This document shows, one piece after another, positions 8,080-44,198 of a DNA stretch of 64,000 nt. The DNA lies in assembly GCA_047946875.1 (NCBI GenBank), contig CP181398.1, forward strand, positions 1,064,409 to 1,128,408, read 5' to 3'. This DNA is from Candidatus Kerfeldbacteria bacterium (lineage in GTDB: Bacteria > Patescibacteriota > Patescibacteriia > UBA10025 > JAHIVO01). The notes under the pieces were generated by a model. The model was not told the origin of the DNA and made no database searches. It was given only the letters and a program-made list of their open reading frames with translations. Both the position numbers and the translations under genes were made by a program. The first letter of the stretch is position 1. Every line of letters starts with the position of its first letter.

Positions 8080-8099
8080 GCTAAAAGTTTATTTTTTAG

Positions 8100-8777: not shown

Positions 8778-8786
8778 AAAAAATAA

Positions 8787-10507: not shown

Positions 10508-10518
10508 AATCCAATAAA

Positions 10519-12827: not shown

Positions 12828-12850
12828 CTTAATGTTATTTTTCTAAATTA

Positions 12851-14531: not shown

Positions 14532-14550
14532 AAACCAATCAAATCTATTG

Positions 14551-16164: not shown

Positions 16165-17408
16165 ACTATAGCAACCTTTTCGATTTCTTTTATTTGATTA
16201 TTATTTTGTCTTATTCTTTTTACCAAAATAAATAGTAGCCAGACAAACACCAAACTGCGAACAAATACAACTATATCAAATACATAGTGATCGTAACCAA
16301 AATATCCATATACCAATGGAAAGAACATGAAGTTTAATAAATCATAAACTACTAAGATTATTATTTCTTTTTTGCCAATATTTATTAAGATAAATAACGG
16401 TAAAACCCATATAAACCATTGTGGTGAATAATATGGAGATAGTTGGATATACAACAGCAATACCAATAAAGACCAATTAATAACGTCTGTCTTGGTCTGA
16501 ATAAACTCTTTAAACTTTGTATAACCTGCATATATGATTAATGGCAAGGCTAATTGCATTAAACCAAGTATCTTGGAACCAATCGCCATATACCATTTCC
16601 AAAAACCAATTGAGAAATAATCCCAATTTGCAGAGATAAAAATTGCATAAATTGATCCGTAACCAAAACTCCTACCTGATTGAAAAATATATGGAAATAA
16701 TGCATTCTCAATCCCCGCCCAAATCATTAATATTAATAATACACCAGCTGTTGGCAACACCATTAAATACAACGGCTTGTTTTTGAATACATTGATTATT
16801 TTAATATCCTTCTTAACCAAATAATAAATTAAAAAAACTGGGAATAATACTATGGCATACCCCTTAGCTAAAAATGATAAACCTAATATTACGAAGGCCC
16901 AAGTAAATTTATCTTTTAATAAAAATAATATTGCTAATTGTATTAGCACGGCCGGAAAAATATCAAATCTATTAATTACAAAATATATAAACGAAGGTAG
17001 CATAAACAGCCACAACAAACTACTACTGCGGCCAAGTATTTTTATTAAACGATATGTTAAAAAAATTAGTAGTAATGTAAAAAATAAATTTTGAATAATT
17101 AAAGCATTTTGATACTCTTCTAACGTATCAGCAAAAAAAGCTGGAATTGTTAAATACAACATACCAAGCGCCGGGTATTCTGCTCGAGTATATTCATAGG
17201 GAGTTCCATTATTATAAAAGAAACTAACCCGATCAAAATATACTCCCATCTCATGATCATCCCAAACAAGACTTATTCCGCCCCCCCTAGCTTCCGTAAC
17301 AAATTTAGCCGGTGAGTTCACCATTAACACAAAAACCAAAATAAATAATAATATGAACCCCAAAAAAATTACTAATATCCTATTTTTATTTTCTAAAACT
17401 TTCTCCAT
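16161..17408 (-). CDS. Polytopic membrane protein, DUF2029/GT87-like mannosyltransferase candidate
   Basis: About 10 TM helices. AEYPALGMLYL resembles the fpYpPl motif of DUF2029. Low specificity. Confidence 0.4.
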   Translation of the reverse strand: MEKVLENKNRILVIFLGFILLFILVFVLMVNSPAKFVTEARGGGISLVWDDHEMGVYFDRVSFFYNNGTPYEYTRAEYPALGMLYLTIPAFFADTLEEYQNALIIQNLFFTLLLIFLTYRLIKILGRSSSLLWLFMLPSFIYFVINRFDIFPAVLIQLAILFLLKDKFTWAFVILGLSFLAKGYAIVLFPVFLIYYLVKKDIKIINVFKNKPLYLMVLPTAGVLLILMIWAGIENALFPYIFQSGRSFGYGSIYAIFISANWDYFSIGFWKWYMAIGSKILGLMQLALPLIIYAGYTKFKEFIQTKTDVINWSLLVLLLYIQLSPYYSPQWFIWVLPLFILINIGKKEIIILVVYDLLNFMFFPLVYGYFGYDHYVFDIVVFVRSLVFVWLLFILVKRIRQNNNQIKEIEKVAIV

Positions 17409-17416
17409 AATTATAT

Positions 17417-18997
17417 TTATAAAACTTTATAAATAGACGCCTCATCATCCATATAAACTCGTAAAAACTTATTATACTTTTGGATATTTTGTTCCATCGC
17501 CGTATGATTACTCTCAATAAATATATAATCCGCACCAAAAATATCTTTAATATCTGAATATATATTTTCTTTTTGAACTCCTGTAGTAATCTCTACCATT
17601 TTATGATAAGCCTCTTCATTATACTCATATGTGAAGGTGGGGTCCAAACCAGCAATATAATAATTATATGAATTGTAATAAAACAATATTGGGAATTCAT
17701 CCCAACTTGAATGAAACACAATTTCTCCTGGCTGACTATTTTCCTGCAACCATAATGAAACATTCTTAAATCTATTGATGCTTATTCCACTTTTAAAATC
17801 GTTATGAGTTTGACGGACGTCTTTTACTACTAACATTGGAATAATTATTACAAAATACAAAGCTAAAATAACAAAAATAACCCAATATTTTCTAATAAAA
17901 GATTCAAATTGTCTCCATATATGTAACCATGATATTCTAGCCACAAATTCATTAATAGTAAAAGCGCTAAAAATAATAGTAAATGGAATATAATATTCTA
18001 CATAACGTCTTGACTTTAAAGTAAAAATAAAAAATAATAGATAGATTAAAAACAAGGCTATAGTTTTTTTATTTAGTCTTTTGAATTTATAAACAAACAA
18101 TATAAGTGCAACAACTAAAATAATAGTCATTAAAGCGGTCCCAGAAGTTAAATTAAAAAAATTATAAGGATACCATTCATTACCTACTGGTATTACTGCC
18201 TGCTGATTAATAATCCCTATCTTTACCAGCTGATGCCAATAAAAAACTATATTTTGTGGAAAATATGGATTTATCACTAAACCGGCCAGAATGCCCCCTA
18301 AAGACGCAAAAAACAGCCTTAATTCACGATTGTGCCCTATTACAAAGCCTAAACTACGCTTTTTAGCTCTGAAAAATAAATCTTTAAATATCCCCGCTGC
18401 AGCATAGGCTCCAGCAAATAATAATATCAAAATAAACCCTCCATAAGACCAAACATAAATAAAAGATAAAATAAATAGTGCTAAATACTTATATCTAAAC
18501 AAAAAATATAACCCAATTATTAAAATCAATATTGAAAATACTGGTGCTTTAATCAGATTAATTCTAAAGATAAATGGAGTTGTTATCAATAACAATATTG
18601 TAAACCAAAAGGCAAATTTTACTTTGAACTTACGAAGTAATCCATAAAATAAAAGTACTAACCCAACCGATAATAAAATATTTGCCAATTTTACTCCCAT
18701 GAGTGGATCCATTATTTTTGTAAATGGTATCAAAAATACATGATACAAAAAATGTTGATCAATATATGAATCTTTTAAAATTGTTGTTTGCAACCAGGGA
18801 AATTCTGTAGAAAAACCATGCTCAGGAATTAACATTGCTGCTTTTGCATGATAAAAAGAATCCGGATCAGCTAAAGTTGGAGTTGATTGTAAAAAAATGA
18901 AATATGAAAAACTTATCACTAATAATACGATATATGCGATAATCCACCAATTATTTCTAAAAAAATATGCAACTGTATTTAACTGCTTCATGCTCAT
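17417..18997 (-). CDS. GT-C-like polytopic membrane glycosyltransferase candidate (paralog of 14551..16164 first-loop region)
   Basis: The first extracytoplasmic loop has ADPDSFYHAKAAML, similar to SPDSVLYLKLAEK in the GT39-like gene and to the PMT DEvHf acidic motif. More than 10 TM helices and a C-terminal soluble domain. Confidence 0.45.
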   Translation of the reverse strand: MSMKQLNTVAYFFRNNWWIIAYIVLLVISFSYFIFLQSTPTLADPDSFYHAKAAMLIPEHGFSTEFPWLQTTILKDSYIDQHFLYHVFLIPFTKIMDPLMGVKLANILLSVGLVLLFYGLLRKFKVKFAFWFTILLLITTPFIFRINLIKAPVFSILILIIGLYFLFRYKYLALFILSFIYVWSYGGFILILLFAGAYAAAGIFKDLFFRAKKRSLGFVIGHNRELRLFFASLGGILAGLVINPYFPQNIVFYWHQLVKIGIINQQAVIPVGNEWYPYNFFNLTSGTALMTIILVVALILFVYKFKRLNKKTIALFLIYLLFFIFTLKSRRYVEYYIPFTIIFSAFTINEFVARISWLHIWRQFESFIRKYWVIFVILALYFVIIIPMLVVKDVRQTHNDFKSGISINRFKNVSLWLQENSQPGEIVFHSSWDEFPILFYYNSYNYYIAGLDPTFTYEYNEEAYHKMVEITTGVQKENIYSDIKDIFGADYIFIESNHTAMEQNIQKYNKFLRVYMDDEASIYKVL

Positions 18998-19084: not shown

Positions 19085-20155
19085 TTATTTAGCTAGTTGT
19101 TGTTTAAAAAAATCTACCACCGGTATTGGGGATGGATCAATATTATTCAACATAGACATATAAAAATTAACATAACTACCAAACAACAGAGCTTCGAACG
19201 ACTGAGATAGCTTGTCTTTACTACTAACCATATAACCAATATATGGAATTTTACTTTTATCAAGAACTTTCTTGGTGATTGCTACTCTGATAGTAATTTT
19301 TGCTGGATATAGCTTTGATTCCAAAAAAGTAAACACTAAATTACTTTTATTGGTCTTTGGGAAAATTAAACCCTCCATTAAATGGTGGTTCAATTCTGAT
19401 ATTAAAAAATATGCTGAGAAAGTCTTACTATTTTCATTAATCTGATTTGTCATTATATGAACATTCCCCGCTAAATGTTCTGCAGCAATGTTAATTGGCA
19501 ATCGACCATAGAGCTTTATGGCCATTTGCTTTGCTTTATTCTTTTTTGATGGAACCTTCAAGCCAAACTTATTGTGTAGTTTAACAATTAAATTAATTAC
19601 TTTTTTAAAATCATTATCAGTTACTTTTAGCATCCCGCAATTCTTCAATAAAGCAATTTGGCCAACGATAGAATAACCCAATCCCATTCTTGGTTGATTT
19701 GAAGGATTAAATTTAGGATCAAAAATATAAGCTGGAATTTTATATTTTTTTGCTGCCTTAGATAATTTACCACCAGCACAAATAATTAATAATTTTGCTT
19801 TACGTTTTTTAGCTATTGGTAAAGTTGCTAATATTTCTTCCGTAGTACCTGAATAGCTAGATAATATATATAAAGTATTTTTATCAACTGACCCCGGAAC
19901 AAAATAACTATTTGTCACCCTAAATGGAACTTTTAGATCATTACTATACAAAGACTCTATTACATGTCCACCAAGAGCCGATCCACCCATCCCACTAATA
20001 ACTATATTTTTACAAGATTTATAACTATTTGGAATTTTAATTTTATTTGCCTCTTCCCAAGCTTGTTGGCACTGCAATCCAAGAGATTCTATCGATCCAG
20101 CCATACCCTGTTTATCTAACTTAATAATATTTTTTAAATTATCAAGACTACTCAT
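19085..20155 (-). CDS. SIS-domain bifunctional phosphoglucose/phosphomannose isomerase-like protein
   Basis: ISGMGGSALGG and SYSGTTEE motifs, typical of the PGI/PMI SIS family. Confidence 0.65.
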   Translation of the reverse strand: MSSLDNLKNIIKLDKQGMAGSIESLGLQCQQAWEEANKIKIPNSYKSCKNIVISGMGGSALGGHVIESLYSNDLKVPFRVTNSYFVPGSVDKNTLYILSSYSGTTEEILATLPIAKKRKAKLLIICAGGKLSKAAKKYKIPAYIFDPKFNPSNQPRMGLGYSIVGQIALLKNCGMLKVTDNDFKKVINLIVKLHNKFGLKVPSKKNKAKQMAIKLYGRLPINIAAEHLAGNVHIMTNQINENSKTFSAYFLISELNHHLMEGLIFPKTNKSNLVFTFLESKLYPAKITIRVAITKKVLDKSKIPYIGYMVSSKDKLSQSFEALLFGSYVNFYMSMLNNIDPSPIPVVDFFKQQLAK

Positions 20156-20276
20156 AAATTATTCATTTAATTATTAATTAATAGACTAATTATAGTTTAA
20201 TTAAAGGTATATAACAAATTGATTTTTACCCTAAAATATGGTATATTCAACGATATTAAAGTAATAATTTCCAAAT

Positions 20277-21002
20277 ATGTCCGGTCACTCTAAATGGTCA
20301 ACAATTAAAAGAGCGAAAGCAGTTACTGACCAAAGACGCGGGAACTTATTTACCAAACTTTCAAAAAATATTACAATAGCAGCCAAACAGGGTGGTGGCG
20401 ATCAAGACATGAATTTCAAATTACGACTAGCAGTTGATAAGGCAAAAAATTCTAACATGCCCAATGACAACATAGATCGTGCTATAAAACGTGGAATAGG
20501 TGAGCTTAAAGATATTGTTGTAGAAGAAGTAATATATGAAGGATTTGGACCAGACGGAATTGCAATAATCATTGAAGTTGCTACTGATAATAAAAACCGA
20601 TCAGCTAGTGCTATCCGAAGCATCTTTACAAAAAATAATGGAAACCTCGGCAATAGCGGTAGTGTAATGTGGATGTTTGCTCAAAAAGGAATTATTAGAA
20701 TACTAAAAGAAAATATTAAAAATAAAGATGAGTTTGAACTGAACGTGATTGATAATGGGGCTGAAGACATAATCGAGGAAGATGAAGGGTTTGTGATATT
20801 ATCTGAAGTTAATTCTTTTAAAAAAATTAAAGACTACATTGAACAAGCTAATATTGTTTTTGAATCGGCAGATATTGAAATGATACCAAATGACAAAATA
20901 AAAGTTTCTGACGGTAAATTAAAAACGAAACTACAAAAATTATTCGACGAATTAGAAGACAATGAAGATGTAAATAACTTTTATACAAATGCCGACTTCT
21001 AA
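20277..21002 (+). CDS. yebC: YebC/PmpR-family transcriptional regulator
   Basis: MSGHSKWSTIKRAKAVTDQRRGNLFTKLSKNITIAAKQGGGD…, the canonical N-terminus. Confidence 0.9.
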   Translation: MSGHSKWSTIKRAKAVTDQRRGNLFTKLSKNITIAAKQGGGDQDMNFKLRLAVDKAKNSNMPNDNIDRAIKRGIGELKDIVVEEVIYEGFGPDGIAIIIEVATDNKNRSASAIRSIFTKNNGNLGNSGSVMWMFAQKGIIRILKENIKNKDEFELNVIDNGAEDIIEEDEGFVILSEVNSFKKIKDYIEQANIVFESADIEMIPNDKIKVSDGKLKTKLQKLFDELEDNEDVNNFYTNADF

Positions 21003-21480
21003 ACCAAAAATTATATTAGGAATTGATCCTGGCTTTGCTATCACTGGATATGGATTAATAAAATTTCATAAAAAAGAAATATCATTAGTAGCCTGTGGAG
21101 CAATAACTTCTTCTGCCAAAGAGCCACACGGACAAAGATTAAATAAAATCAATAAAGAACTAACGAAAATATTAAAAAAATATAAACCGGACGTCGTAGG
21201 AGTTGAAAAACTTTTTTTCGCTAAAAATACAAAGACAGCTCTTAAGGTTGGGGAAGCGCGTGGAGTAATAATGCAAACAGTCTGGCAACATAATCAATCC
21301 GTCAGAGAATTTACTCCTCTACAAATCAAACAAGCTATCACTGGATATGGTCGTGCTAGCAAAACACAAATCCAAATAATGGTAAAACAGCAACTAAATC
21401 TAAAAACTACACCGAAGCCTGATGACGTTGCTGATGCTTTAGCCATAGCAATCTGCTGTGCCTATACAAAAGAATATTAA
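20989..21480 (+). CDS. ruvC: Holliday junction resolvase RuvC
   Basis: ILGIDPGFAITGYGLI…, with conserved acidic residues along the sequence. Confidence 0.9.
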   Translation: MPTSKPKIILGIDPGFAITGYGLIKFHKKEISLVACGAITSSAKEPHGQRLNKINKELTKILKKYKPDVVGVEKLFFAKNTKTALKVGEARGVIMQTVWQHNQSVREFTPLQIKQAITGYGRASKTQIQIMVKQQLNLKTTPKPDDVADALAIAICCAYTKEY

Positions 21481-21490
21481 ATATAAGTTT

Positions 21491-22963
21491 ATGGCAAAAA
21501 TATTGAAAATCGCCAGCATTGCTTCTGAGGTATCCCCTTATTCAAAAAGTGGTGGTCTTGGTGATGTCACAAAATCATTACCCAAAGCTTTATCCCAACT
21601 TGGTCACAAAGTAAGTATTATCACTCCTTGCTATAGTTTTATCTGCAAAAAACAAAAGAATTTAGAAAATGTAGATAAAAAATTTACTGTAAAATTTAAA
21701 AATAACTCCTACCCAATCATAATAAAAAAACTTACTATAAGTAACAATTTGACCGTATATTTTATTGGGAATGCAAAATTATTTGGGAACAGTAAAAATA
21801 TTTATGGTTACAAAAATGATAATCTTAGATTTTTTATTTTCAATATTGCCGTTTTAAAAATGCTTGAATTATTAAAATTAAAACCAAATATAATCCATTG
21901 TCATGATTGGCAAGCGGGAATGATCCCAAACTTACTTAAATTAGATAAAAAAAGATTCCCTAGTCTAAAAAAATCAGCGACTATTTTTACTATTCACAAT
22001 CTTACCTTCCAAATGTCGGGGGGTTGGTGGAATGTACCAGCTAATAAAAAAGATAATGGGCGTAATAATCCTTTAAAAGATTTTTCTAAAATCAAATATC
22101 TAAATTTTACCAAAAGGGCTATATATAATGCTGACATTATTAATACTGTCAGCGAAAGATATGCAGAAGAAATAACCTCTCCAGAACTTGGGCAAGGTTT
22201 AGATAAATATCTAATACAAAGATCTGGCGACTTATATGGAATAATAAATGGTATTGATTATACAATTCATAATCCAGCCTTTGATAATAATTTAAAGTAT
22301 AAATATGATTGGAATAGTTTACGTCGTAAAAGCAAAAATAAATTAGCCCTTCAACAAGAACTTGGTCTAGAACAAAAAGGAGATATTCCATTAATTGGCA
22401 TGACTAACCGACTAACAGAACAAAAGGGTTTCAAACTTATTATGGAAAATATTGAAATTATTATGAAGCTCCCCATACAATTAGTTATCGTTGGAAGTGG
22501 TTTTCGTGAGTACATATTATTCTTCAAAAAATATGCAAAAAAATATCCCCACAAATTAGCCCTAGTCACTCCTTTTACAGAAATTATGGAATCAAAAATA
22601 TATGCTGGATCTGATATGTTTTTAATGCCTTCCAGATTTGAACCTTGTGGTATCTCCCAATTAAAAAGTTTACGATATGGTTCTGTGCCTATTGTTCATG
22701 AAACTGGGGGACTTTCAGATACAATTAGAAACTATAACCCAAAAACTCGAAAAGGAAATGGCTTTGTATTCAAACAATATGATTCTATTCATTTTATGAT
22801 GGCCCTAGCTCGAGCACTGGAAAATTATAAATTTCCTCAATTTTGGGAACATCTAACCTGGAAAGCAATGCAACAAACGTATTCTTGGGAACTTCCAGCA
22901 AAAAAATATATAAGACTATTTAACATCGCCTTGAAAAAAAAGGCAGAAAGAAAAAAAATATAA
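21491..22963 (+). CDS. glgA: Glycogen/starch synthase (GT5)
   Basis: KSGGLGDV motif at the N-terminus. C-terminal RFEPCGISQ…VHETGGLSDTI. Start at ATG 21491 (MAKILKIAS). Confidence 0.9.
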   Translation: MAKILKIASIASEVSPYSKSGGLGDVTKSLPKALSQLGHKVSIITPCYSFICKKQKNLENVDKKFTVKFKNNSYPIIIKKLTISNNLTVYFIGNAKLFGNSKNIYGYKNDNLRFFIFNIAVLKMLELLKLKPNIIHCHDWQAGMIPNLLKLDKKRFPSLKKSATIFTIHNLTFQMSGGWWNVPANKKDNGRNNPLKDFSKIKYLNFTKRAIYNADIINTVSERYAEEITSPELGQGLDKYLIQRSGDLYGIINGIDYTIHNPAFDNNLKYKYDWNSLRRKSKNKLALQQELGLEQKGDIPLIGMTNRLTEQKGFKLIMENIEIIMKLPIQLVIVGSGFREYILFFKKYAKKYPHKLALVTPFTEIMESKIYAGSDMFLMPSRFEPCGISQLKSLRYGSVPIVHETGGLSDTIRNYNPKTRKGNGFVFKQYDSIHFMMALARALENYKFPQFWEHLTWKAMQQTYSWELPAKKYIRLFNIALKKKAERKKI

Positions 22964-24186
22964 TGTACTGGGCAAATTTTTTTCATATCTACCAACCTCC
23001 TAACTGGTCACCACAAATAATAAAAAAAGTAACTAAAGAAAGCTATCGCCCCATTTTAACAATACTAAAAAAGAGTCCTAAGTTAAAAATAACTTTGAAT
23101 ATTTCTGGCTCTCTTACAGAACAATTAGCTCTACAAGGTTTTAATGACATAATTGATGATATTACAAATCTAGCTAAAAAAAAACAAATCGAATTTACAG
23201 GCAGCGCGCTCTATCATCCTATCCTACCTTTATTACCTACAAAAGAAATTATAAGACAGATTCAATTAAACACAGAAATAAACAAAAAATATTTTGGTAA
23301 AATATATAACCCAAAAGGATTTTTCTCTCCTGAAATGGCTTATAACAAAAAAATAGCTATTGTTATTCAGTCCCTCGGCTATAAATGGATAATCGTTGAT
23401 GAAATTTGTTACAACGGAGTATTAAATGCAAGTCAGCTCAACCAACGCTATCAAATAAAAGGTACTTCAGTAAATATAGTATTTAGAAACAGAGCCATTA
23501 GTGATTATTTTTCTTTTCATGGAAATCCAAAAAAACCACAAGAATTTTGGGATACTGTTGAGAAAGATGGTAGATATAATCCAGCTATCATAACTGCAAT
23601 GGACGGAGAAAATTTAGGTCATCATAGAAAAGGTTGGGATATCTACTGGAAAAAATTAGCTACAGACAAAAAAATACACACCCTTACCATAAATTCTTTG
23701 TTAAAAAAATATAAATCCAAAAAAATTATTACTCCAGTAAATGCTAGTTGGTCATCACAGGATCGAGAATTAAAAAACAAACATCCATATATATTATGGG
23801 ATGATCCGAAAAATCAAATACATTCTCTTCAATGGAATCTTATTCATTACACATCAAAGCTCCTCCATCAAAAAACCAAACACTCAAATTATACAAAAGC
23901 AAGAAAACTTTTTGATAAACGATTAGCCTCTGATCAATTTTGGTGGGCTTCTGCAAAACCATGGTGGAGCCTGAGAATAATTAAGAAAAAAACAAAAGAA
24001 CTTCAAGAAGTTATATTACTTGTAGACAAAAATAATAAAGAAGGAATTAATATTTCAAAGAAAATAATTAAACTTGCTACTAAATGGCAATCAACTAATA
24101 AATTTAAAACAATCGCTGATAAATATTTATTAGATAATCAAAATGATAATACAAGATTCATAGGCGGTAATAAAATTACTAACTAA
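22963..24186 (+). CDS. Glycoside hydrolase family 57 protein (alpha-glucan processing)
   Basis: MYWANFFHIYQPP…GSALYHPILPLLP…AMDGENLGHH: GH57 catalytic-domain pattern. Tandem paralog of the next gene. Confidence 0.7.
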   Translation: MYWANFFHIYQPPNWSPQIIKKVTKESYRPILTILKKSPKLKITLNISGSLTEQLALQGFNDIIDDITNLAKKKQIEFTGSALYHPILPLLPTKEIIRQIQLNTEINKKYFGKIYNPKGFFSPEMAYNKKIAIVIQSLGYKWIIVDEICYNGVLNASQLNQRYQIKGTSVNIVFRNRAISDYFSFHGNPKKPQEFWDTVEKDGRYNPAIITAMDGENLGHHRKGWDIYWKKLATDKKIHTLTINSLLKKYKSKKIITPVNASWSSQDRELKNKHPYILWDDPKNQIHSLQWNLIHYTSKLLHQKTKHSNYTKARKLFDKRLASDQFWWASAKPWWSLRIIKKKTKELQEVILLVDKNNKEGINISKKIIKLATKWQSTNKFKTIADKYLLDNQNDNTRFIGGNKITN

Positions 24187-24197
24187 AATTATAAATT

Positions 24198-25577
24198 ATG
24201 TACTGGGCAAATTTTCTTCATATTTACCAACCACCTACCCAAAAAGAATATTGGGTAAAAAAAATTGCTAACGAAAGTTATCGTAAAATAATTAAGGGCA
24301 TGGAGAAAGATCCAAACAGTAAGGCCACCTTAAATATCAATGCTGTTCTTACTGAGCTATTTGTTAAATTTGATTGCAAGGATGTAATACAAGGAATTAA
24401 AAAATTAGCAGAAAAAGGACAAATTGAGTTAACGGCCAGCGCTAAATACCATCCTTTTCTACCCTTAATGCCAGAGAAAGAAATAATCAGACAAATTGAA
24501 CTCAACACAATCACTAACAAAAAATACTTTGGTGATGCTTTTAATCCTAAAGGTTTTTTTCCACCAGAAATGGCTTATAATCGAAAAGTAGGAGAAATAG
24601 TTGCTAAAGCTGGCTACAAATGGTTAATTCTTGACGAGTTGGCCCACTCAGGGGAAACCAAAACAATCAATTGGTCAAAAACCTACAACTTAGAAGGTTT
24701 TGATGATTTCTATATATTCTTCCGAGAAAGAGAAGCAAGTTTTAGAATCCTATCAGCGGAAATTGGAATGAGTGTTTTTTCTAGTGACATGCTAATTAAA
24801 CTACTTGGTGACCGAGTAGACAAAAATGAATATCTAATTACTGCCATGGATGGTGAAACATTTGGTCATCATCGTCCTGGTTTAGAAGAACTATTATTTG
24901 ACTTATTTAAAACTGACAAATTACAACCGGTACATGTTTCCGACCTGATTGATTTATTCAAAAATAAAGAAAGTGTTGAGCCAAGAGATTCTTCCTGGGC
25001 CTTGATGAAAAAAGATATTGAACAAAATACTCCCTTTTCACGTTGGCAAGATAAAAATAATGAAATTCATAATATGCAATGGGAATTAACTGATCTTGCC
25101 TTAAGAAGCATAAAAAGCACTGATAAAAATACTAAAGATTTTAACAAAGTAAGAGCTGCTCTAGACCAAGCAATCCATTCAGATCAATACTGGTGGGCAT
25201 CTGCTATGCCATGGTGGAGCATTGAAATGATTGAAGCAGGTGCAAGAGATTTACAAAACGTAGTTCTCCAATCTTCATTGCCACAATCAGATAAAGATAG
25301 AGCTGAAGATTTATATAAAAATATTATCTATACTGCTTTTGACTGGCAACGTTCAGGTAAAGTAGATGAGCTGGCAAAATCAGCAGACGAAGACGTTACT
25401 CAACGTATAACCACAGAGATGCCTTTTATTCCCGTAGCTGAATTTAATAAAATGGTTAAGAATCTAGAAAACCAAATGTTAGAAGCAGCCAAGGCAAGAG
25501 AATATGAAAGGGCGGCTCAATTGAGAAATAGGGTTATCGAATTAAATGAAAAAAAAGATCAAATAACAAAAAAATAA
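24198..25577 (+). CDS. GH57 protein fused to a C-terminal UVR (UvrB/UvrC-type) motif
   Basis: N-terminal MYWANFLHIYQPP…AMDGETFGHH. The C-terminal end REYERAAQLRNRVIELNEKK matches the UVR consensus (..E.AA.lRd.i..L). Confidence 0.7.
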   Translation: MYWANFLHIYQPPTQKEYWVKKIANESYRKIIKGMEKDPNSKATLNINAVLTELFVKFDCKDVIQGIKKLAEKGQIELTASAKYHPFLPLMPEKEIIRQIELNTITNKKYFGDAFNPKGFFPPEMAYNRKVGEIVAKAGYKWLILDELAHSGETKTINWSKTYNLEGFDDFYIFFREREASFRILSAEIGMSVFSSDMLIKLLGDRVDKNEYLITAMDGETFGHHRPGLEELLFDLFKTDKLQPVHVSDLIDLFKNKESVEPRDSSWALMKKDIEQNTPFSRWQDKNNEIHNMQWELTDLALRSIKSTDKNTKDFNKVRAALDQAIHSDQYWWASAMPWWSIEMIEAGARDLQNVVLQSSLPQSDKDRAEDLYKNIIYTAFDWQRSGKVDELAKSADEDVTQRITTEMPFIPVAEFNKMVKNLENQMLEAAKAREYERAAQLRNRVIELNEKKDQITKK

Positions 25578-25580
25578 ACT

Positions 25581-26567
25581 ATGTTAGCAAAAAGTAAAGA
25601 TGATGCAAAAAACCACCGAGCTTATGCACGTAAAATAATAAAAGAAATTACCAATGAAAGAAGTTTTGTAACAACAGAGCGTATTAGATTTGGTCCCCGA
25701 TATTTTGTAGCTAAAGGAAATTATCAAAAATACACCTCCTTATTTAAAATCGCTTTATACCCTAAATCATACGATCACTTAACTAATGAAAAATTCTCCC
25801 GTGAAATATTATTTTTAAATATCATTCAGAATTCAAAATTTAAAAATTTAAAAAAATCAATTCCTCATATTTACGACTCAAGTATTAAAACAAGAGCGTG
25901 GTATTTTCGTGAATATCTAACTGGCAAAGTTCAAAATATTAATGGTGGTAATATCAGATTTAAAGATTCATTCTTTACAACCGCTCATCTTAATTGGTTT
26001 ATAAACGCATTTTCAGAACTTCAAAATATTACCCTTAAAGACTTACCATTACAATTTAAAAAACTATTATATCCCCACCAAACACTCGAATACCTTTGGC
26101 GTTTCATTAGTCCGGACTATAAAACTTTGGAAAAATTTATTGGTATCCCTGGGTCAACGAAAGATATTCATAATATATTCTTGAAAAACAGCAAGATATA
26201 CAAAAATGCTCCAAAAGTTTTAGCCCACCAAGAAGTATATTCACCCCATATTATAAACATAAATGGCCAATTAAAAATGATTGATTGGGAAAATATTGGC
26301 TGGGCCACTCCAACTAATGATATAGTTGCTATGTGGATGAGAGCACATAACCATCCAAATTGGCAGAAAAAACTTAAAAAAAGTTTTCAGAATAAATACA
26401 AAAAATATAAACAATTTGATCAACTTTGGGATATTACTGTCTTGGTTCAATCAGTCTATAATGTAATAAGTTACCACCACTACTTTGACAAAAAAGACTT
26501 TGAAGCGCTGGCAATATTCTCAGGTAAGATGGTCAAACAAATTTTAAAAAAATCACAAAACAAATAA
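25581..26567 (+). CDS. Protein-kinase-like (APH/ChoK fold) protein with substituted catalytic motif
   Basis: LAHQEVYSPHIININGQLKMIDWENIGWATPTND aligns to the APH HGDxxxxN…IDWE motif, but reads HQE…H (Asp to Glu, Asn to His). Confidence 0.5.
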   Translation: MLAKSKDDAKNHRAYARKIIKEITNERSFVTTERIRFGPRYFVAKGNYQKYTSLFKIALYPKSYDHLTNEKFSREILFLNIIQNSKFKNLKKSIPHIYDSSIKTRAWYFREYLTGKVQNINGGNIRFKDSFFTTAHLNWFINAFSELQNITLKDLPLQFKKLLYPHQTLEYLWRFISPDYKTLEKFIGIPGSTKDIHNIFLKNSKIYKNAPKVLAHQEVYSPHIININGQLKMIDWENIGWATPTNDIVAMWMRAHNHPNWQKKLKKSFQNKYKKYKQFDQLWDITVLVQSVYNVISYHHYFDKKDFEALAIFSGKMVKQILKKSQNK

Positions 26568-26573
26568 AATAAT

Positions 26574-27458
26574 ATGGAAAAAAATATTGATTTACATTTT
26601 CATTCAGTTTATTCCGAGGGAGATTACACCGTCCCAGAATTATTACAATTAGCCAAAGATAATAATATCCACGTCTTAGCTATGACTGATCATAATGTAA
26701 TAGCCGGTGTAGCCGAGCTAGTTAAACTTGCTCCAGACTATGGAATCAAAGCAATCCCTGGAGTGGAAATATATACACATTTTGAAAATGTCCCGCTACA
26801 TTTGCTCGGGTATAATTTTGATCCTGAAAATAAACAAATCAAAAAAATGATCCACGATCTTCAGACTGACAATGAAAAAAATATTAACAACTCTATCTCA
26901 AATTTACAGCAAGAGGGTTTTGTAATAGATGAAAAAAAATTATTCAAGTCAACCTCTCGTAATTTTGGAGCAATCCATATTCTCAAAGAGATGGAGCTTC
27001 ATCCAGAAAATATTAAAAAATTAGAAAAAGATTTAGGTAATAATTTTGATAATTTTTTTATAAAGATTGAAAAATACTTTGGACAAGGTCGCCCAGGCTA
27101 TATGCCTTTATCCGAGATACCTACTGATCAAGCAATTAAAATTATACAAGCTGGTAGTGGTTTTTCCTCCCTAGCTCATCCTGGACAACAATTAACCTAT
27201 GAACAAGATAATTTAATTTTGAATTTAGTTTCTAAGGGGCTAGATGCTATTGAAGTCCTCTCCCCTTATCACAACTGGCACCAAATAGAACATTACCAAA
27301 AAGTTGCAGATAAAAACAATTTACTAATTACTGGCGGGAGTGATTTTCATGGAGATATAGATTTCAAAAAACAAGAACTTATTCAGAGACAATGGGATTA
27401 TTTCCATGTGCCTTATAAAATTTTTGAACAATTAAATAATAAAATTACTAACTTATAA
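26574..27458 (+). CDS. PHP-domain metal-dependent phosphoesterase
   Basis: DLHFHSVYSEGDYT…LAMTDHNVIAG N-terminal His motifs. C-terminal GGSDFHG. Confidence 0.8.
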   Translation: MEKNIDLHFHSVYSEGDYTVPELLQLAKDNNIHVLAMTDHNVIAGVAELVKLAPDYGIKAIPGVEIYTHFENVPLHLLGYNFDPENKQIKKMIHDLQTDNEKNINNSISNLQQEGFVIDEKKLFKSTSRNFGAIHILKEMELHPENIKKLEKDLGNNFDNFFIKIEKYFGQGRPGYMPLSEIPTDQAIKIIQAGSGFSSLAHPGQQLTYEQDNLILNLVSKGLDAIEVLSPYHNWHQIEHYQKVADKNNLLITGGSDFHGDIDFKKQELIQRQWDYFHVPYKIFEQLNNKITNL

Positions 27459-27463
27459 AAAAT

Positions 27464-28933
27464 ATGAAACCTTTAAAAGTACTTTTGATAGCTTCTGAAC
27501 TTAACCCTATAGCCAAGGTTGGCGGTCTGGCTGACGTGATTGGAGCTTTACCCAAGGCATTGGCTAAATTGGGTGTAGACGTAAGAATCGCTATTCCAAA
27601 ATATGGTGTGATTGACGAAAAAGAATATCCAGTTACAGAACTAGCCAAAAATGTAACAGTTCCTTTTGAAGGTGAGGATAAACTAATGAATATTTTTTCT
27701 ACTCCTCTACCAGATACTAAGGTGCCTGTTTATTTATTAGACAATCTTGAGTACTTAGGACAAAACGGAATTTATTTTGAAACTGATGCATCCTCTAGTG
27801 GTTCAAATAGAGAGGCTGAAAGATATTCATTTTTTGCTCGATCTGTCATGGAAATCTTCGAGCCATTAGATTGGTATCCAGACGTTATTCATTGTCATGA
27901 TTGGCATGTTGGTTTTGTCCCAGTAATATTAAAAATATTAAGCAAAAAAAACAACAAACTTGCTCATATTAAATCACTACTAACTATCCATAATTTAGAA
28001 TATCAAGGACGATATGATGAACAGATGATTTTCAATGCTTTTGGTATTAAAAAATCTGACCATGAAACGTTGTCAGAAAACCAAAATGGACAAATTAATA
28101 GTTTACAACAAGCAATTTTAACTAGTGACCACCTTAATACTGTTAGTCCAAATTATGCTAAAGAAATATTAACCAAAAAATATGGTGCAGGTCTAGAAAG
28201 TACTTTAGATGTAAGAAAAAATGATTTAGAAGGAGTGATTAATGGAATAGATGTGGATAGATTTAATCCTGAAACAGATAAATCTTTAATCGCCAATTAT
28301 TCTGTTGACGACCTATCTGGACAGGCTAAATGTAAAGAAGATTTACAAAAAAAATGTGATCTTAAAGTTGATCCAAAAATTCCTATTTTAGGTATTGTCT
28401 CTCGTCTAGCCGACCAAAAGGGTATAGATCTAATTTATGATATTGCTGATAAAATTGCAAAAGAAGATGTTCAGTTTGTCTGCTTAGGAACTGGCGATCC
28501 AAAACTAGAAGCAATGATGAGTGAAATTGCAAAGAAATATCCTGAGAAATTCTATACCCAAATTGCTTTTGATGCGGCCTTTGCACAATTAATCTATGCT
28601 GGATCTGATATGTTCCTTATGCCATCAAAATTTGAGCCTTGTGGCTTAGGCCAAATGATTTCTATGCGTTATGGTACAGCACCTATTGTTCGATATACTG
28701 GTGGATTAGCAGATACTGTAGAAAACTATGACGCAAAAAATGATACTGGTGATGGTTTTGTATTTAATGACTATGATGCTGATCAATTCTTTGAAGCTAT
28801 AAAAAATTCATTAGATCTTTATCAAGATCAAAAGAAATGGTACAATTTAATCAAACGAATAATGAAGAAAGATTTCTCCTGGACTGCCTCAGCTAATAAA
28901 TACATTGAGCTATATAAAAAAATAATTGATTAA
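27464..28933 (+). CDS. glgA: Glycogen/starch synthase (GT5), second copy
   Basis: KVGGLADV motif; KFEPCGLGQ…RYTGGLADTV. Confidence 0.9.
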   Translation: MKPLKVLLIASELNPIAKVGGLADVIGALPKALAKLGVDVRIAIPKYGVIDEKEYPVTELAKNVTVPFEGEDKLMNIFSTPLPDTKVPVYLLDNLEYLGQNGIYFETDASSSGSNREAERYSFFARSVMEIFEPLDWYPDVIHCHDWHVGFVPVILKILSKKNNKLAHIKSLLTIHNLEYQGRYDEQMIFNAFGIKKSDHETLSENQNGQINSLQQAILTSDHLNTVSPNYAKEILTKKYGAGLESTLDVRKNDLEGVINGIDVDRFNPETDKSLIANYSVDDLSGQAKCKEDLQKKCDLKVDPKIPILGIVSRLADQKGIDLIYDIADKIAKEDVQFVCLGTGDPKLEAMMSEIAKKYPEKFYTQIAFDAAFAQLIYAGSDMFLMPSKFEPCGLGQMISMRYGTAPIVRYTGGLADTVENYDAKNDTGDGFVFNDYDADQFFEAIKNSLDLYQDQKKWYNLIKRIMKKDFSWTASANKYIELYKKIID

Positions 28934-28936
28934 ACA

Positions 28937-29929
28937 ATGCCCGTAAAAAAAACTACAAAAAAAATAGTTAAAAAAACCGTCTACAAAGATGTAAAAATTA
29001 ATCCTGCAAATAGTGAAATAAGAGTAGATGAAATCCATGATCGTTTTGTAATTATTGCTCCCGGTAGATCAAAAAGGCCTCATGATACAGCAAAACATAA
29101 AGAAGTTCCAGTTAAATCTAAAGACTGTCCTTTTTGTAAAGAAGCTAATTTTTTGTCACAACCTCCTCTTCATTTAGTCGGACCTGACAAATGGTGGGAA
29201 ATTAAAGTTATTCGGAATATTTTCCCCTTTCTTTCGCCAGGCAATCCAAAAGCTTATGGACACCAAGAAGTTGTAATAGAAACTCCTCACCACAACAAAG
29301 AGTTGGCGGAATTTGGTGAATCACACATTGTCAGGCTTTTACAAACCTATCAAGCGCGAACAAAAGCATTATCAAAAGATCCTAAGATAAAATATATTCT
29401 TATTTTTAAGAATCATGGTGGTAAGGCTGGTGCTTCACTTGTACATGCCCACTCACAAATTATGGCTGCTGGATTTGTCCCATCTCATATTGTAAATAAA
29501 TTGGGCCGAGCAAGAAAATATTTGATTGAAAAAGGTATTTCTTATTATCAAAAATTAGCTAATCGTGAAGGAAAAGGACCTAGAAAAATATTCGAAGATA
29601 AATATATAACTGCTTTTTGTCCATATGCTTCTTCTTATAATTATGAAGCATGGTTAGTACCAAAAAGAAAAGTTGATAACATATCTATGCTTGAAATTGA
29701 TGAGTTAAAATCGTTAGCTAAGGCTTTGAAAAAAATATTGAAGAAAGTAAATCAACTCGAGCTCCCATACAATTTTTATATGCACCAAACATTGACTGAT
29801 AGACATGAATATTTTTATCTAAGAGTTTGCCCAAGACGAGATACTCATGCTGGTGTAGAGCTTGGATCACGTGTCATTGTAAATACTGTCGCTCCAGAAG
29901 ATGCTGCGAAATTCTATAGAGGAAAATAA
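28937..29929 (+). CDS. GalT-family hexose-1-phosphate nucleotidyltransferase (galactose-1-P uridylyltransferase-like)
   Basis: Zn-knuckle CPFC and active-site HAHSQI (HxHxQ). Confidence 0.75.
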   Translation: MPVKKTTKKIVKKTVYKDVKINPANSEIRVDEIHDRFVIIAPGRSKRPHDTAKHKEVPVKSKDCPFCKEANFLSQPPLHLVGPDKWWEIKVIRNIFPFLSPGNPKAYGHQEVVIETPHHNKELAEFGESHIVRLLQTYQARTKALSKDPKIKYILIFKNHGGKAGASLVHAHSQIMAAGFVPSHIVNKLGRARKYLIEKGISYYQKLANREGKGPRKIFEDKYITAFCPYASSYNYEAWLVPKRKVDNISMLEIDELKSLAKALKKILKKVNQLELPYNFYMHQTLTDRHEYFYLRVCPRRDTHAGVELGSRVIVNTVAPEDAAKFYRGK

Positions 29930-29939
29930 ACTTAAACTA

Positions 29940-29973
29940 AAAAACATCTCCTTATCACGGGAGGTGTTTTTAG
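29940..29973. terminator. Bidirectional rho-independent terminator between convergent genes
   Basis: ACATCTCC-8nt-GGAGGTGT stem (one G-U pair), flanked by A5 and T5. Confidence 0.7.
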
Positions 29974-32475: not shown

Positions 32476-34131
32476 ATGAAAAAACTAGCCTTCGTTTTAG
32501 GAATATCCATAGCCATTTTTGTCAGCGCAAACTTTGCTGAAGCTATTCAAATTATTGATGATGCTCTGCAAGTTAACTCATTAAGAGTTGGTCAACAAGG
32601 GGTTGGTGGTGTTACCTACTTTAATGGCACCATCATTAATGAAACAACTACTGATGGGGTGGGTAATCCTGTAGCTTTTGGAGATGATGTTAGAATAGAT
32701 GGAAGACTGTTTCGTGGAGCAACAGCTGGTACTGGAGATACACAACCATTCATTATTAATGATAATCTTGAAGTTGTTGGATCATTAACTGTAGGATCAA
32801 CTAACATACTTTCCAGTTTAAGCTCTCTTGGAACGACTGATGCCAACTTACAATCTCAGATTACCACTTTAGAAACAACGGACTCTAGTTTGCAATCTCA
32901 GATCTCTGCCAAAGGAGTTGGTGATATGTTGAAGTCAACCTACGATATTGCTGGAAACAGCAAGATAGATGCTGGGAAACTAGATTCTGGTATTGCTGCT
33001 ACATTGATCAGTAGTGGTGGCGTAAATAACACAATTTTTAATTATTTAGCTAGTCTTAATTTAGATAATACCGGCAATATTCATTTAACAGCTCTTGGTA
33101 TTGACGCTGGGGCATTAGTTACAGGAGCAGATAACACACTTTTTGGCTATCAGGCTGGAGATGCAATTACTTCGGGAATCAATAATACAGCATTTGGCTA
33201 CAACACACTTAGTGCTATATCTACAAATGCCAATAATACCGCAATTGGCAGTAACGCACTTGCTGTTAGCACTGCAACTAATAATACAGCAATTGGATAT
33301 GATGCTTTAGCAGCTAATACAATAGGTAATTCAAATACTGCAGTAGGAAGTAAAGCATTAGACGCAAATACTGAAGGTGAATTTAACACAGCAATCGGCT
33401 ATAGTGCTCTTACTGCAAATATATTAGCCAGTTCAAACACCGCTATCGGATATAATGCCATGGCAGCGCACAATGGCGCTGGTGCTATGAATGTTGCTAT
33501 TGGTAGAAATGCCTTAGATGCTAGCACAGGTGGAACTTGGAATGTAGCTGTTGGTTATGAGACTCTTACTACTGGCACGGGTAATGACTCGAGCGTTGCC
33601 GTTGGTTATCAGGCTTTAAGAGTAGCGCTTGGTGATAACAATGTTGCCGTTGGTTATCAGGCTGGGAACGGAATAACATCTGGGAATAATAATATTCTGA
33701 TTGGATATGATATTGATGCGGCTTCTCCTGGAGCAAGTAGTTATTATTTAAATATTGGTGATATCCTAACAGGAAGTCTTGACCCTACTGCACCTGGGCT
33801 CAGCATAGATAGTGGATTTGCATTAACACCATCGACAGATCAAACAAGAGAGGCTACATCTACTATTACAATTGATAATGGTATTGTTAGAGTAGTAAGC
33901 GATGGGGGAGGAATTGTTTTAGGAAGTACTGCAATTGAAGATGGAGCTGCAGATGGACAAATTGTAATTATTCAAGGCACTCACGACACCAATACAGTTC
34001 AAATACCAAATGCCGCTAATACTGCTCTCGTGGGTGATGCTGCAATTACTTTAGGTAAGGGAGATAATATACAATTAATGTGGGATAGTGGCGACAGCTT
34101 ATGGTATGAGATAAGTCGCGCCGATCATTAA
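32476..34131 (+). CDS. Secreted repeat protein with YadA-head/Hep_Hag-like beta-helix repeats (adhesin or fibre-like)
   Basis: Signal peptide MKKLAFVLGISIAIFVSANFA. Duplicated TTDxxLQSQI segment. More than 12 repeats of N(T/N)A(I/V)GY.AL.A (NTAFGYNTL, NTAIGSNAL, NTAIGYDAL, NTAVGSKAL, NTAIGYSAL, NTAIGYNAM, NVAIGRNAL, NVAVGYETL, SVAVGYQAL, NVAVGYQAG…), resembling the YadA head SVAIG repeat. Confidence 0.55.
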   Translation: MKKLAFVLGISIAIFVSANFAEAIQIIDDALQVNSLRVGQQGVGGVTYFNGTIINETTTDGVGNPVAFGDDVRIDGRLFRGATAGTGDTQPFIINDNLEVVGSLTVGSTNILSSLSSLGTTDANLQSQITTLETTDSSLQSQISAKGVGDMLKSTYDIAGNSKIDAGKLDSGIAATLISSGGVNNTIFNYLASLNLDNTGNIHLTALGIDAGALVTGADNTLFGYQAGDAITSGINNTAFGYNTLSAISTNANNTAIGSNALAVSTATNNTAIGYDALAANTIGNSNTAVGSKALDANTEGEFNTAIGYSALTANILASSNTAIGYNAMAAHNGAGAMNVAIGRNALDASTGGTWNVAVGYETLTTGTGNDSSVAVGYQALRVALGDNNVAVGYQAGNGITSGNNNILIGYDIDAASPGASSYYLNIGDILTGSLDPTAPGLSIDSGFALTPSTDQTREATSTITIDNGIVRVVSDGGGIVLGSTAIEDGAADGQIVIIQGTHDTNTVQIPNAANTALVGDAAITLGKGDNIQLMWDSGDSLWYEISRADH

Positions 34132-34946: not shown

Positions 34947-35576
34947 ATGAAACAAAAACAAATCAAACATATAGTTTTTGACTGGTCTGGAGTAATCGCA
35001 GATACTTTTGATAATTGGTTTATCGCCTCAACAAAGATATTTGAACACTTTGGTCATAAAAAACTATCTATCAAAGAATCACGAGAAAATTTTACCCAGC
35101 CATATATGGTTTTTTATAATAAGTACATGCCAAAGTTAGGATTAAAAGAACAACAAAAAGTTTACGAGAAAATCATTACCAAGCTGCCACCTGCAAATAT
35201 TTTCCCTGGAATGAGAAGTGAAATATTAAAATTTAAAAAAGCCGGTGTAGAATTATCCATCCTCAGCGGTGATAGACACCAAACTCTTTTTTTAGAAATG
35301 AAGAAGTATAAACTTAAAAATATATTTAACCAAATAGAATACAATATTCACGATAAAACAAAAACTATTAAAAAAGTTATAAGCAAAAGTGATTATAATC
35401 CAAAAGAAACTGTTTTTATCGGCGACACAACTCATGAAATCGAAGCTGGGAAAAAAGTGGGCTGCCAAACGTGTTCCGTAACTTGGGGATTTATGACAAA
35501 AAGAAGATTATCAAAAACTAAACCTACATATATTGTAAGTAAGCCAAGCTTATTATTTAAAACATTAATACATTAA
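34947..35576 (+). CDS. HAD-superfamily hydrolase (motif I variant DWSGV)
   Basis: IVFDWSGVIAD (motif I, second Asp replaced by Ser), SGD (motif II/III region), FIGDTTHEIEAGKKVG (motif IV). Confidence 0.75.
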   Translation: MKQKQIKHIVFDWSGVIADTFDNWFIASTKIFEHFGHKKLSIKESRENFTQPYMVFYNKYMPKLGLKEQQKVYEKIITKLPPANIFPGMRSEILKFKKAGVELSILSGDRHQTLFLEMKKYKLKNIFNQIEYNIHDKTKTIKKVISKSDYNPKETVFIGDTTHEIEAGKKVGCQTCSVTWGFMTKRRLSKTKPTYIVSKPSLLFKTLIH

Positions 35577-43945: not shown

Positions 43946-44198
43946 ATATTTATTATATTAAGTTTTTATATATAAATAGTATTAGTAATAATAGAGTGGA
44001 AAAGTTAATAACTTTTTTTATTTAGAAAGAAAGGTTAGAGAAAAGTTATTTTTTTAAAGTTTTTTTCTGTTAATATTTTGAGAGTTATAAGTGGATAGAT
44101 GGGGGAAACTTTTTATGTTTTTTTTAACTTGATTTAACTTGATGAGTTTTTAAACATTTAGATAACAGATTGTTAATAATATATCCACAGTAAAAAAA
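43946..44198. promoter_or_regulatory. dnaA-dnaN spacer with DnaA-box-like motifs (possible second oriC segment)
   Basis: ATATCCACA at 44181-44189, AAGTGGATA (reverse complement TATCCACTT) about 44091-44099, TTATC cores. AT-rich. Confidence 0.35.

Follow-up and report, generated by a model that had tools for sequence, protein, structure and literature searches.

Two routes of α-glucan synthesis are currently described in bacteria, GlgC-GlgA and TreS-Mak-GlgE. Some bacteria that lack GlgC have been proposed to use UDP-glucose (bioRxiv 10.1101/2020.10.23.351924). ADP-glucose phosphorylase converts ADP-glucose and phosphate (Pi) to ADP and glucose-1-phosphate (G1P), with a Km of 7 µM for ADP-glucose according to the passage of PMC4136846 that cites McCoy 2006. 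A 2024 Chem Rev survey of prokaryotic α-glucan enzymes names neither GalT-family nor ADP-glucose phosphorylase enzymes, and the family DUF4931 is still called uncharacterised in a 2026 preprint (bioRxiv 10.64898/2026.09.13.751320). The DNA analysed here is a stretch of 64,000 nucleotides (the window) from a Candidatus Kerfeldbacteria bacterium (GenBank assembly GCA_047946875.1, contig CP181398.1, positions 1,064,409 to 1,128,408). At positions 21491-29929 it contains a locus encoding two glycogen synthases (GlgA1 and GlgA2), two GH57 proteins (GH57a and GH57b), a kinase-like protein, a PHP-family phosphoesterase and a GalT-like nucleotidyltransferase of the HIT family. With a probability of roughly 0.55, the locus is interpreted as a conserved Patescibacteria operon for the turnover of an intracellular α-1,4-glucan (glycogen- or maltodextrin-like), centred on G1P and not built around the classical GlgC step.

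The seven open reading frames (ORFs) are all on the + strand and are separated by -1 to 11 nt. A 13-pair hairpin terminator with a T-run (29940..29971) lies between the GalT-like stop codon and the convergent next gene. An earlier note on this DNA, made from the sequence, had described seven co-oriented genes between ruvC and a terminator, comprising two GlgA copies, tandem GH57 genes, a kinase, a PHP protein and a GalT-family gene. The arrangement was confirmed, and the identities of the genes were borne out by family and motif evidence. The families GlgC, GlgB and GlgP had been described as absent from the window, and this is what the scans returned: they covered 48 window ORFs, including all 32 ORFs of at least 300 aa, and no GlgC/NTP_transferase, GH13 or GT35 match was found among the 48. 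The window ORFs left outside the scans (10 of 200-299 aa and 9 of 120-199 aa) are all shorter than typical GlgC, GlgB or GlgP. The proposal of a variant α-glucan locus, as opposed to the textbook glgBXCAP set, is supported in direction by the gene content and by its conservation across Patescibacteria.

This conservation was assessed on 80 loci around GalT-like homologues, collected from one-genome-per-species GTDB assemblies, onto which the window proteins were mapped. Synteny was counted in those 56 loci that have 7 kb or more of upstream sequence, and the core is defined as GlgA1, GH57, GlgA2 and GalT-like. The lineages of the 80 loci are nearly all Patescibacteria (Kerfeldbacteria, Uhrbacteria, Komeilibacteria and Kuenenbacteria), including many records that probably bear a wrong title, 'uncultured Gammaproteobacteria'. 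The full core is present in 38 of the 56 loci and both GH57 paralogs in 35. The gene order is fixed, GlgA1 - GH57a - GH57b - slot - GlgA2 - GalT-like, where the slot is a position of variable content, and mostly follows yebC-ruvC. In 45 of the 56 loci, down to 44% identity, the GalT-like gene immediately follows GlgA2, and the junction of the two, a 3-nt gap in the window, is an overlap of 4 to 35 nt in relatives. At least one kinase is encoded in 36 of the 38 core loci, and similarity mapping found no GlgC, GH13 GlgB or GT35 in these 38 loci. Since the gene order is fixed and the catalytic motifs are kept in every copy, the operon is real and under selection, and not a chance arrangement. The duplications that separate GlgA1 from GlgA2 and GH57a from GH57b are both older than the divergence of these lineages.

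Two further observations were made on these loci. A GH15 gene (glucoamylase/'oligosaccharide amylase'-like), absent from the window, is inserted between ruvC and glgA1 in L002 (4753-5913) and L006 (4771-5868). Contigs with an operon of the type found in the candidate phyla radiation (CPR) also appear under other names, namely 'uncultured Gammaproteobacteria', Zixiibacteriota, Omnitrophota and Pirellulales (L007, L013, L016, L017, L019, L033, L066 and others); these records are probably mis-binned or mislabelled.

GlgA1 (21491..22963, + strand) and GlgA2 (27464..28933, + strand) score 481.7 and 544.9 bits with TIGR02095 'glycogen/starch synthase, ADP-glucose type' (cut-off 328.45), and GlgA1 matches Pfam Glyco_transf_5 with 218 bits. 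The two copies are 37% identical. Both contain the N-terminal K-x-G-G-L and the C-terminal (S/P)-x-F-E-P-C-G regions, which are conserved in 36-50 orthologues, and both are predicted to be intact ADP-glucose-type GT5 synthases.

The GalT-like protein (28937..29929, + strand), a GalT/HIT-family nucleotidyltransferase, matches GalP_UDP_transf, DUF4931_N and DUF4921. Its best solved relative is the Arabidopsis ADP-glucose phosphorylase At5g18200 (1Z84), which it matches over its full length (residues 24-328) with 138.5 bits and an E-value of 3e-39, versus 82.5 bits (3e-22) for the true GalT of Pyrobaculum (6K5Z) and 68.6 bits (5e-18) for that of E. coli (1HXP). The equivalogs of class I GalT stay under their cut-offs (TIGR00209, 95.3 vs 102.1; PRK11720, 109.4 vs 448). 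The nucleophile motif H170-A-H172-S-Q174 is kept in 81 of 81 homologues. The zinc-site residues C64, C67 and H119 are invariant in a 22-sequence alignment, and C64 and C67 are present in 66 of 81 more distant homologues. A C-terminal stretch, 'E-[IL]-G-[ST]-x3-[IV]-N-x-V-x-PED', is common to the GalT-like protein and At5g18200.

The gene is always the last one of operons that contain GT-B glycosyltransferases, including operons outside the glucan loci. In L034 (253-5320) the order is GT4 - APH kinase (with canonical HGD...N) - GT4 - GT4 - GalT-like, and the same layout is seen in L053, L028, L072, L040, L042 and L045. L080 and L064 show GT4 - GT4 - RimK-type ATP-grasp - GalT-like, and in Kuenenbacteria (L027, L029, L031, L041) a PfkB sugar kinase precedes the GalT-like gene. 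Because of these GT4-operon and PfkB contexts, the protein appears to handle NDP-sugars and sugar 1-phosphates in association with transferases that use NDP-sugars, in many cases together with a kinase. Such kinase and nucleotidyltransferase contexts would fit a sugar-activation module, with NahK + GalT2 of the bifidobacterial GNB/LNB pathway as precedent (bioRxiv 10.64898/2026.09.13.751320). The earlier suggestion that the GalT-fold enzyme handles NDP-hexose gained ground from both its relatedness to ADP-glucose phosphorylase and its terminal position.

Sister operons with a GT35 phosphorylase show what can stand at the place of the GalT-like gene. The most informative contexts were those of deep members of the Glu/His kinase clade described below. 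L089 is arranged as X - GH57b/UVR - kinase - GT35 phosphorylase, where X is a phosphoesterase-like family described below; L087 as GlgA - GH57 - GT35 - X - kinase; L092 as kinase - GT35 - X - kinase; and L090 as kinase - GlgA2 - GalT-like. In L194 the GT35 gene overlaps the GlgA stop codon, at the site held by the GalT-like gene in the window. Homologous operons carry either GT35 or the GalT-like protein, the latter with or without GlgA2, at this position.

The kinase-like protein (25581..26567, + strand) has no Pfam APH match itself; its homologues carry PF01636 (APH). It shows the bilobal kinase fold with the β3 Lys and the αC Glu. The catalytic loop deviates from the canonical H-x-D-x4-N: the window kinase reads H216-Q-E218-V-Y-S-P-H223, followed by an I-D235-W-E-N motif, and the Asp and Asn of choline kinase align with Glu and His. 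The label 'atypical kinase' of the earlier note was right, as HQExYxxH is found where HxDxxxxN is expected. The family is small: a search of 1.84 billion proteins gave 269 representatives at E <= 1e-3. In the best 150 of these 269 representatives, H-x-E-x4-H is present in 48 and the canonical H-x-D-x4-N in about 57. The Glu/His replacement is invariant within the clade of the window kinase. Twelve residues (R40, K56, E75, W107, H216, E218, H223, I234, D235, W236, E237 and D247) are invariant across 32 diverse Glu/His members with 18-48% identity. Decay to a pseudokinase was considered and rejected, because K56, E75, H216, E218, H223 and D235 are invariant over this range of identity. The Glu/His kinase looks like an enzyme with a live, altered active site. 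In fold searches and profile-vs-PDB searches (for the window clade and the K1 clade described below), only generic APH similarity was obtained; maltokinase (Pep2/Mak), NahK and other sugar kinases were not singled out, and no specific similarity to maltokinase or NahK beyond the generic APH fold was found.

The Glu/His kinase is one of several occupants of the slot between GH57b and GlgA2, which nearly always has at least one APH-fold kinase, with or without a PHP-type phosphoesterase; in other lineages, kinases with canonical HGD...N or HND...N motifs take its place. In the core loci the slot holds the Glu/His kinase in 17 cases, a canonical kinase K1 ('HNDFQxSN...IDF') in 15 and a canonical relative, K2 ('HGDxYPxN...FDWE'), in 7; other contents are both kinases or a fused two-kinase protein. 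Two APH kinases, or one double-APH protein of 675-677 aa, occupy the slot in L038, L043 and L059 (about 4526-6565 each) and in L061, L071 and L073. A scan of metagenome contigs with a degenerate DNA pattern for the Glu/His kinase gave 119 hits, 87 of them chance matches and 32 true members. GH57b is immediately upstream of the kinase in 21 of these 32 members, and most of the others are contig-edge cases.

GH57a (22963..24186, + strand; 407 aa), whose start codon shares 1 nt with the glgA1 stop, and GH57b (24198..25577, + strand; 459 aa, with a C-terminal UVR motif) match PF03065 with 158.5 and 122.5 bits (cut-off 21.2) and are 39% identical to each other. Both show the (β/α)7-barrel catalytic fold. 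E124 and D214 of GH57a align with the catalytic E123 and D214 of the Thermococcus litoralis 4-α-glucanotransferase (TLGT), and GH57b keeps the equivalent residues at E124 and D218. The catalytic Glu and Asp are each kept in 39 of 39 GH57a and 40 of 40 GH57b orthologues. TLGT is the best solved relative of both proteins, weakly so (E-values of 2e-14 for GH57a and 2e-7 for GH57b), and fold scores do not discriminate among the GH57 subfamilies.

The subfamily was examined by reading the fingerprint positions by eye against the fingerprint of Janecek (PMC6037648). At position 23, GH57a has Asn where GH57b has Thr, and Trp-Trp stands at positions 35-36. Glycogen branching enzymes (GBE) have Leu at position 23 and Phe plus a non-aromatic residue at 35-36; 4-α-glucanotransferases have Lys at 23, α-amylases Tyr-Tyr at 35-36, and amylopullulanases Trp-Trp at 35-36 with a long spacing from conserved sequence region (CSR) 1 to CSR-3 (PMC6037648). 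The GBE equivalogs of NCBIfam score 21-35 bits against cut-offs of 920-1000, and no DUF1957 match was found in either protein. On the fingerprint positions and these cut-offs, assignment of GH57a and GH57b as branching enzymes was rejected. The features are mixed, since 'xPPEMA / DGE(N/T) / SDxxWW' resemble WPPEAS / DGENCW of AaApu and the spacing of the Glu and Asp is that of TLGT. The subfamily check proposed in the earlier note was answered in part: the catalytic Glu and Asp are in place, the GBE fingerprint does not fit, and no other described fingerprint fits completely. GH57a and GH57b are probably active, genuine GH57 enzymes of an undescribed short subgroup, for which branching, debranching and disproportionation are all possible activities.

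GH57b carries a UVR motif of the UvrB/UvrC type (E435-R445), preceded by an acidic stretch (D397-E-D-V-T-Q-R403), and both are invariant across the family. In the structural model the acidic stretch (397-408) is predicted as disordered or of low confidence, and the UVR region spans residues 415-452. These two elements suggest a protein-protein contact, that is, a conserved interaction module on a glycoside hydrolase. NCBI names the whole GH57b family 'UvrB/UvrC motif-containing protein'.

The PHP protein (26574..27458, + strand) is a PHP-family metal-dependent phosphoesterase of the TrpH/YciV type, with 54.6 bits for PF02811 (cut-off 26.4). The N-terminal H-x-H metal motif is part of a stretch, 'LHFHSVYSEGD', that 15-17 of 18 orthologues retain, and the PHP gene is present in 15 of the 38 core loci. 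The nearest solved structures are 9ETK, 2YB1, 3E0F and 7UG9. The PHP equivalogs stay under their cut-offs (3',5'-nucleoside bisphosphate phosphatase, the best NCBIfam match, 130.3 vs 400; RNase RNM, 105.4 vs 375). The protein also scores 76 bits with NCBIfam NF041661, which represents a PHP family member that hydrolyses a sugar 1,2-cyclic phosphate. ADP-glucose decays to glucose-1,2-cyclic phosphate, as stated in a passage of PMC4136846, and the two observations together are only a lead to the PHP substrate. Beside kinases in α-glucan operons, the Pfam-silent family X (285-390 aa) recurs, with an H-x-H motif and weak NCBIfam PHP matches. Copies are located in L006 (11888-12994), L087 (8196-9053 and 10106-11020), L089 (1-561 and 4669-5640), L092 (3847-4755) and L168 (474-1547). 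X is a second, divergent PHP-like phosphoesterase.

In the proposed mechanism, the HIT enzyme would interconvert ADP-glucose + Pi and G1P + ADP via a His-AMP intermediate, and GlgA2 together with the HIT enzyme would connect glucan and G1P, ADP being the carrier that is recycled. The two reactions, ADP-glucose + Pi <-> G1P + ADP and glucan(n) + ADP <-> glucan(n-1) + ADP-glucose, would sum to the glycogen phosphorylase reaction. The pair would be thermodynamically equivalent to GT35, which matches their interchange in the operon and would explain the lack of GlgC and GlgP in the locus. The textbook equilibrium of glucan + Pi <-> G1P corresponds to a [G1P]/[Pi] ratio of about 0.28. The GlgA2/HIT pair could mobilise glucan by phosphorolysis, and would build it only at a high ratio of G1P to Pi.

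In the simplest case, the kinase would phosphorylate glucose or maltose to a sugar 1-phosphate, in the manner of NahK and maltokinase, two anomeric kinases with the APH fold. These two and methylthioribose kinase are APH-fold sugar kinases that act at C1, and the reaction glucose + ATP -> G1P + ADP amounts to about -10 kJ/mol. An anomeric kinase would provide both substrates of the reverse HIT reaction as well as the driving force for synthesis, which would be a rationale for the near-universal kinase of the operon. GH57a and GH57b would cut, disproportionate or possibly branch the chains. Candidate substrates of the PHP protein would be a sugar-phosphate or a nucleotide-derived phosphoester. 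The kinases and the PHP protein may also regulate the enzymes of the operon.

A more specific version of this proposal is tentative and, as a whole, rather improbable: GlgA2 and the HIT enzyme would form an ADP-shuttled, reversible converter of G1P and α-glucan that replaces both GlgC and GlgP, with synthesis driven by a new class of Glu/His APH-fold sugar 1-kinases. In a stronger variant, the HIT enzyme may take AMP directly from ATP and be a mechanistically new ADP-glucose synthase.

Several points weigh against a G1P-centred operon. With Glu and His at the place of the canonical Asp and Asn, ordinary kinase chemistry of the window kinase is not guaranteed, and the nearest characterised relatives of the PHP protein act on nucleotides and not on sugars. 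With textbook values, reverse ADP-glucose phosphorylase plus GlgA would give net synthesis only if [G1P]/[Pi] exceeded about 0.28, which makes GlgC-free synthesis demanding. The GlgA of L087 has no GalT-like gene nearby and must have another source of ADP-glucose, at least there. The last two points also favour a scattered but otherwise ordinary glycogen metabolism, in which a canonical glgC (perhaps with glgB and glgP) elsewhere in the genome supplies the ADP-glucose. In such a metabolism the genes of the kinase and of the PHP protein would be passengers unrelated to it, and the GalT-like protein would be a side player that drains or buffers ADP-glucose or a Leloir-type GalT for scavenged galactose. 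It would account for two GlgA of the standard ADP-glucose type and is compatible with a negative result for glgC that covers the window and the orthologous loci. The tight GlgA2/GalT-like junction, kept by overlap or a 3-nt gap in 45 of 56 loci, is hard to reconcile with a side player. The kinases are not passengers, given that 36 of the 38 core loci have one in the slot and that GH57b is followed by the Glu/His kinase in 21 of 32 metagenome members. Furthermore, neither galK nor galE is seen in the locus, the GalT-like protein is under the GalT cut-offs and nearer to ADP-glucose phosphorylase, and GlgC co-expressed with ADP-glucose phosphorylase and the synthases would form a futile cycle. 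This explanation is considered fairly unlikely.

A purely catabolic operon for host-derived maltodextrin or glycogen would be an analogue of MalQ/MalP/Glk, or of the Thermococcus GH57 4-α-glucanotransferase with a phosphorylase: the GH57 enzymes would disproportionate chains, reversed GlgA2 and the HIT enzyme would release G1P, and the kinase would phosphorylate the freed glucose. The relatedness of both GH57 proteins to TLGT, the replacement of GalT-like (or of GlgA2 and GalT-like) by GT35 in sister operons and the GH15 gene added in some relatives agree with this, as do the expected preference of the pair's net reaction for phosphorolysis and the presumed host dependence of CPR bacteria. Two full-length synthases with conserved, intact donor and acceptor motifs are, however, hard to explain without synthesis, the operon has no transporter or secreted amylase, and we know of no precedent for the reversal of a GT5 synthase in vivo. 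Catabolism as the sole function is judged unlikely. The polymer itself could also be the substrate of the kinases and of the PHP protein, through a reversible phosphorylation that loosens a poorly branched, semi-crystalline glucan, in analogy to plant GWD/PWD with SEX4/LSF2. The presence of up to two or three APH kinases (K1, K2/Glu-His, fused) and one or two PHP-like phosphoesterases (PHP, X) per operon would suit this role, and so would the lack of a recognisable branching enzyme in the locus, whose GH57 proteins do not have the GBE fingerprint, and the association of the Glu/His kinase with GH57b instead of the NDP-sugar enzyme. Yet APH-fold kinases typically act on small molecules, no module for carbohydrate binding was detected, GT4 and GalT-like operons without glucan enzymes have related canonical kinases as well, and the relatives of the PHP protein are nucleotide phosphoesterases. 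Phosphorylation of the glucan is considered quite unlikely. A glucosylated compatible solute or a cell-surface glycan in the place of a storage polymer, the first of which had been raised in the earlier note, is highly improbable. A large surface-glycosylation cluster is located upstream in the window, and the GalT-like gene elsewhere ends GT4 operons that may build other glycans. Both transferases are nonetheless full-length GT5 GlgA that pass the ADP-glucose-type synthase model, and they are paired with the α-glucan-active family GH57 and, in sister loci, with GT35. No solute-type transferase (GpgS/GT81), solute-phosphate phosphatase, flippase or export gene is present in the locus, and with no supporting gene the solute was rejected.

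The operon probably starts further upstream, at yebC. A gene of the yebC/TACO1 family (20277..21002, + strand) is co-directional with the glucan genes, and a promoter-like site at 20219-20247, upstream of it, is a consensus match only. The end of yebC is overlapped by ruvC (20989..21480, + strand; PF02075 in orthologous loci), which stops 10 nt ahead of glgA1, and the YebC-RuvC pair ahead of the glucan genes is conserved in relatives. Other flanking genes with conserved synteny are a bifunctional PGI/PMI (19085-20155), a HAD-IA hydrolase (34947-35576) and a ROK-family sugar kinase (37603-38502). Their products may feed or drain hexose phosphates, though the linkage may be merely positional. 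The HAD hydrolase was considered as a β-phosphoglucomutase and rejected, being PpaX/phosphoglycolate-phosphatase-like and under all cut-offs.

The window has a G+C content of ~30%. The genes dnaN and dnaA (42845-45575, minus strand) place the glucan operon ~13 kb from the probable replication origin, an arrangement kept in L002 and L004. The envelope-glycosylation cluster upstream (1323-18997) encodes a DUF2079 membrane protein, two PMT_2 (dolichyl-phosphate-mannose-type) transferases, GT2 and GT4 proteins, a DegT/DnrJ aminotransferase, a FemAB/GNAT-like protein and several long ORFs without family. At 32476-34131, a protein of 551 aa with a signal peptide consists mostly of degenerate 'NNTA(I/V)GY' repeats and may be a surface fibre or adhesin; no Pfam match is on record for it.

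In the searchable literature, no account was found of the operon, the pairing of GlgA with an HIT enzyme, the clade of Glu/His kinases or a UVR-tagged GH57. If GlgA2 and the HIT enzyme do act as a converter of G1P and α-glucan, this would be the first physiological role for DUF4931 and ADP-glucose phosphorylase, and a third bacterial α-glucan route. The operon makes testable the purpose of these enzymes, the capability of a synthase and an HIT enzyme to stand in for GlgC and/or GlgP, and the storage or mobilisation of carbon in genome-reduced CPR bacteria. It also flags three protein groups for biochemistry, namely the Glu/His APH-fold kinases, the short GH57 paralogs (one with UVR) and the PHP-like family X.

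The described systems share individual components with the operon. With the E. coli glgBXCAP operon it has in common the GT5 synthases of the ADP-glucose type, the operon organisation and a probable α-1,4-glucan product. GlgC, GH13 GlgB, GlgX and GT35 GlgP are absent from the locus and the window, and two synthases, GH57 in the place of GH13, an HIT nucleotidyltransferase, one or more kinases and a PHP phosphoesterase are found instead. The GlgE pathway (TreS-Pep2/maltokinase-GlgE-GlgB) resembles it in an APH-fold kinase within α-glucan metabolism and in a sugar 1-phosphate as the activated donor. GlgE (GH13_3), TreS and GlgB are absent from the locus, and the kinase does not match maltokinase at the level of sequence, while its fold is no closer to maltokinase than to other APH kinases.

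The GalT-like protein shares the HxHxQ motif, the CxxC zinc motif and the C-terminal motif with At5g18200 (EC 2.7.7.36; 1Z84/2H39). It belongs to Pfam DUF4931, its gene is translationally linked to a glycogen synthase, and the likeness in activity is predicted from the sequence. To our knowledge, the plant ADP-glucose phosphorylase has no established physiological partner. The bifidobacterial GNB/LNB system (NahK + GalT2) and other Leloir-type modules, like the present operon, encode an APH-fold kinase and a GalT/HIT enzyme together, which by analogy suggests the sequence sugar to sugar-1-phosphate to NDP-sugar. GNB/LNB differs in that GalT2 is of class II, with <15% identity to class I, in acting on N-acetylhexosamines and in having no polymer synthase.

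Proximity of GH57 to a glucan-elongating or phosphorolysing enzyme is also a feature of the Thermococcus maltodextrin system, the Thermus/Thermococcus GBE and the mycobacterial Rv3031-Rv3032 pair, and the sister CPR operons carry a GT35 phosphorylase. The CPR GH57 proteins differ in being short (407 and 459 aa), without the DUF1957 and C-terminal domains of GBE and 4-α-glucanotransferases, in their mixed CSR fingerprints and, in one of them, in the UVR motif. Plant starch phosphorylation (the GWD/PWD dikinases with SEX4/LSF2) likewise ties one or more kinases and phosphoesterases genetically to glucan enzymes; the folds are entirely different, APH and PHP in the CPR operon versus a PEP-utilising dikinase and a DSP phosphatase in plants.

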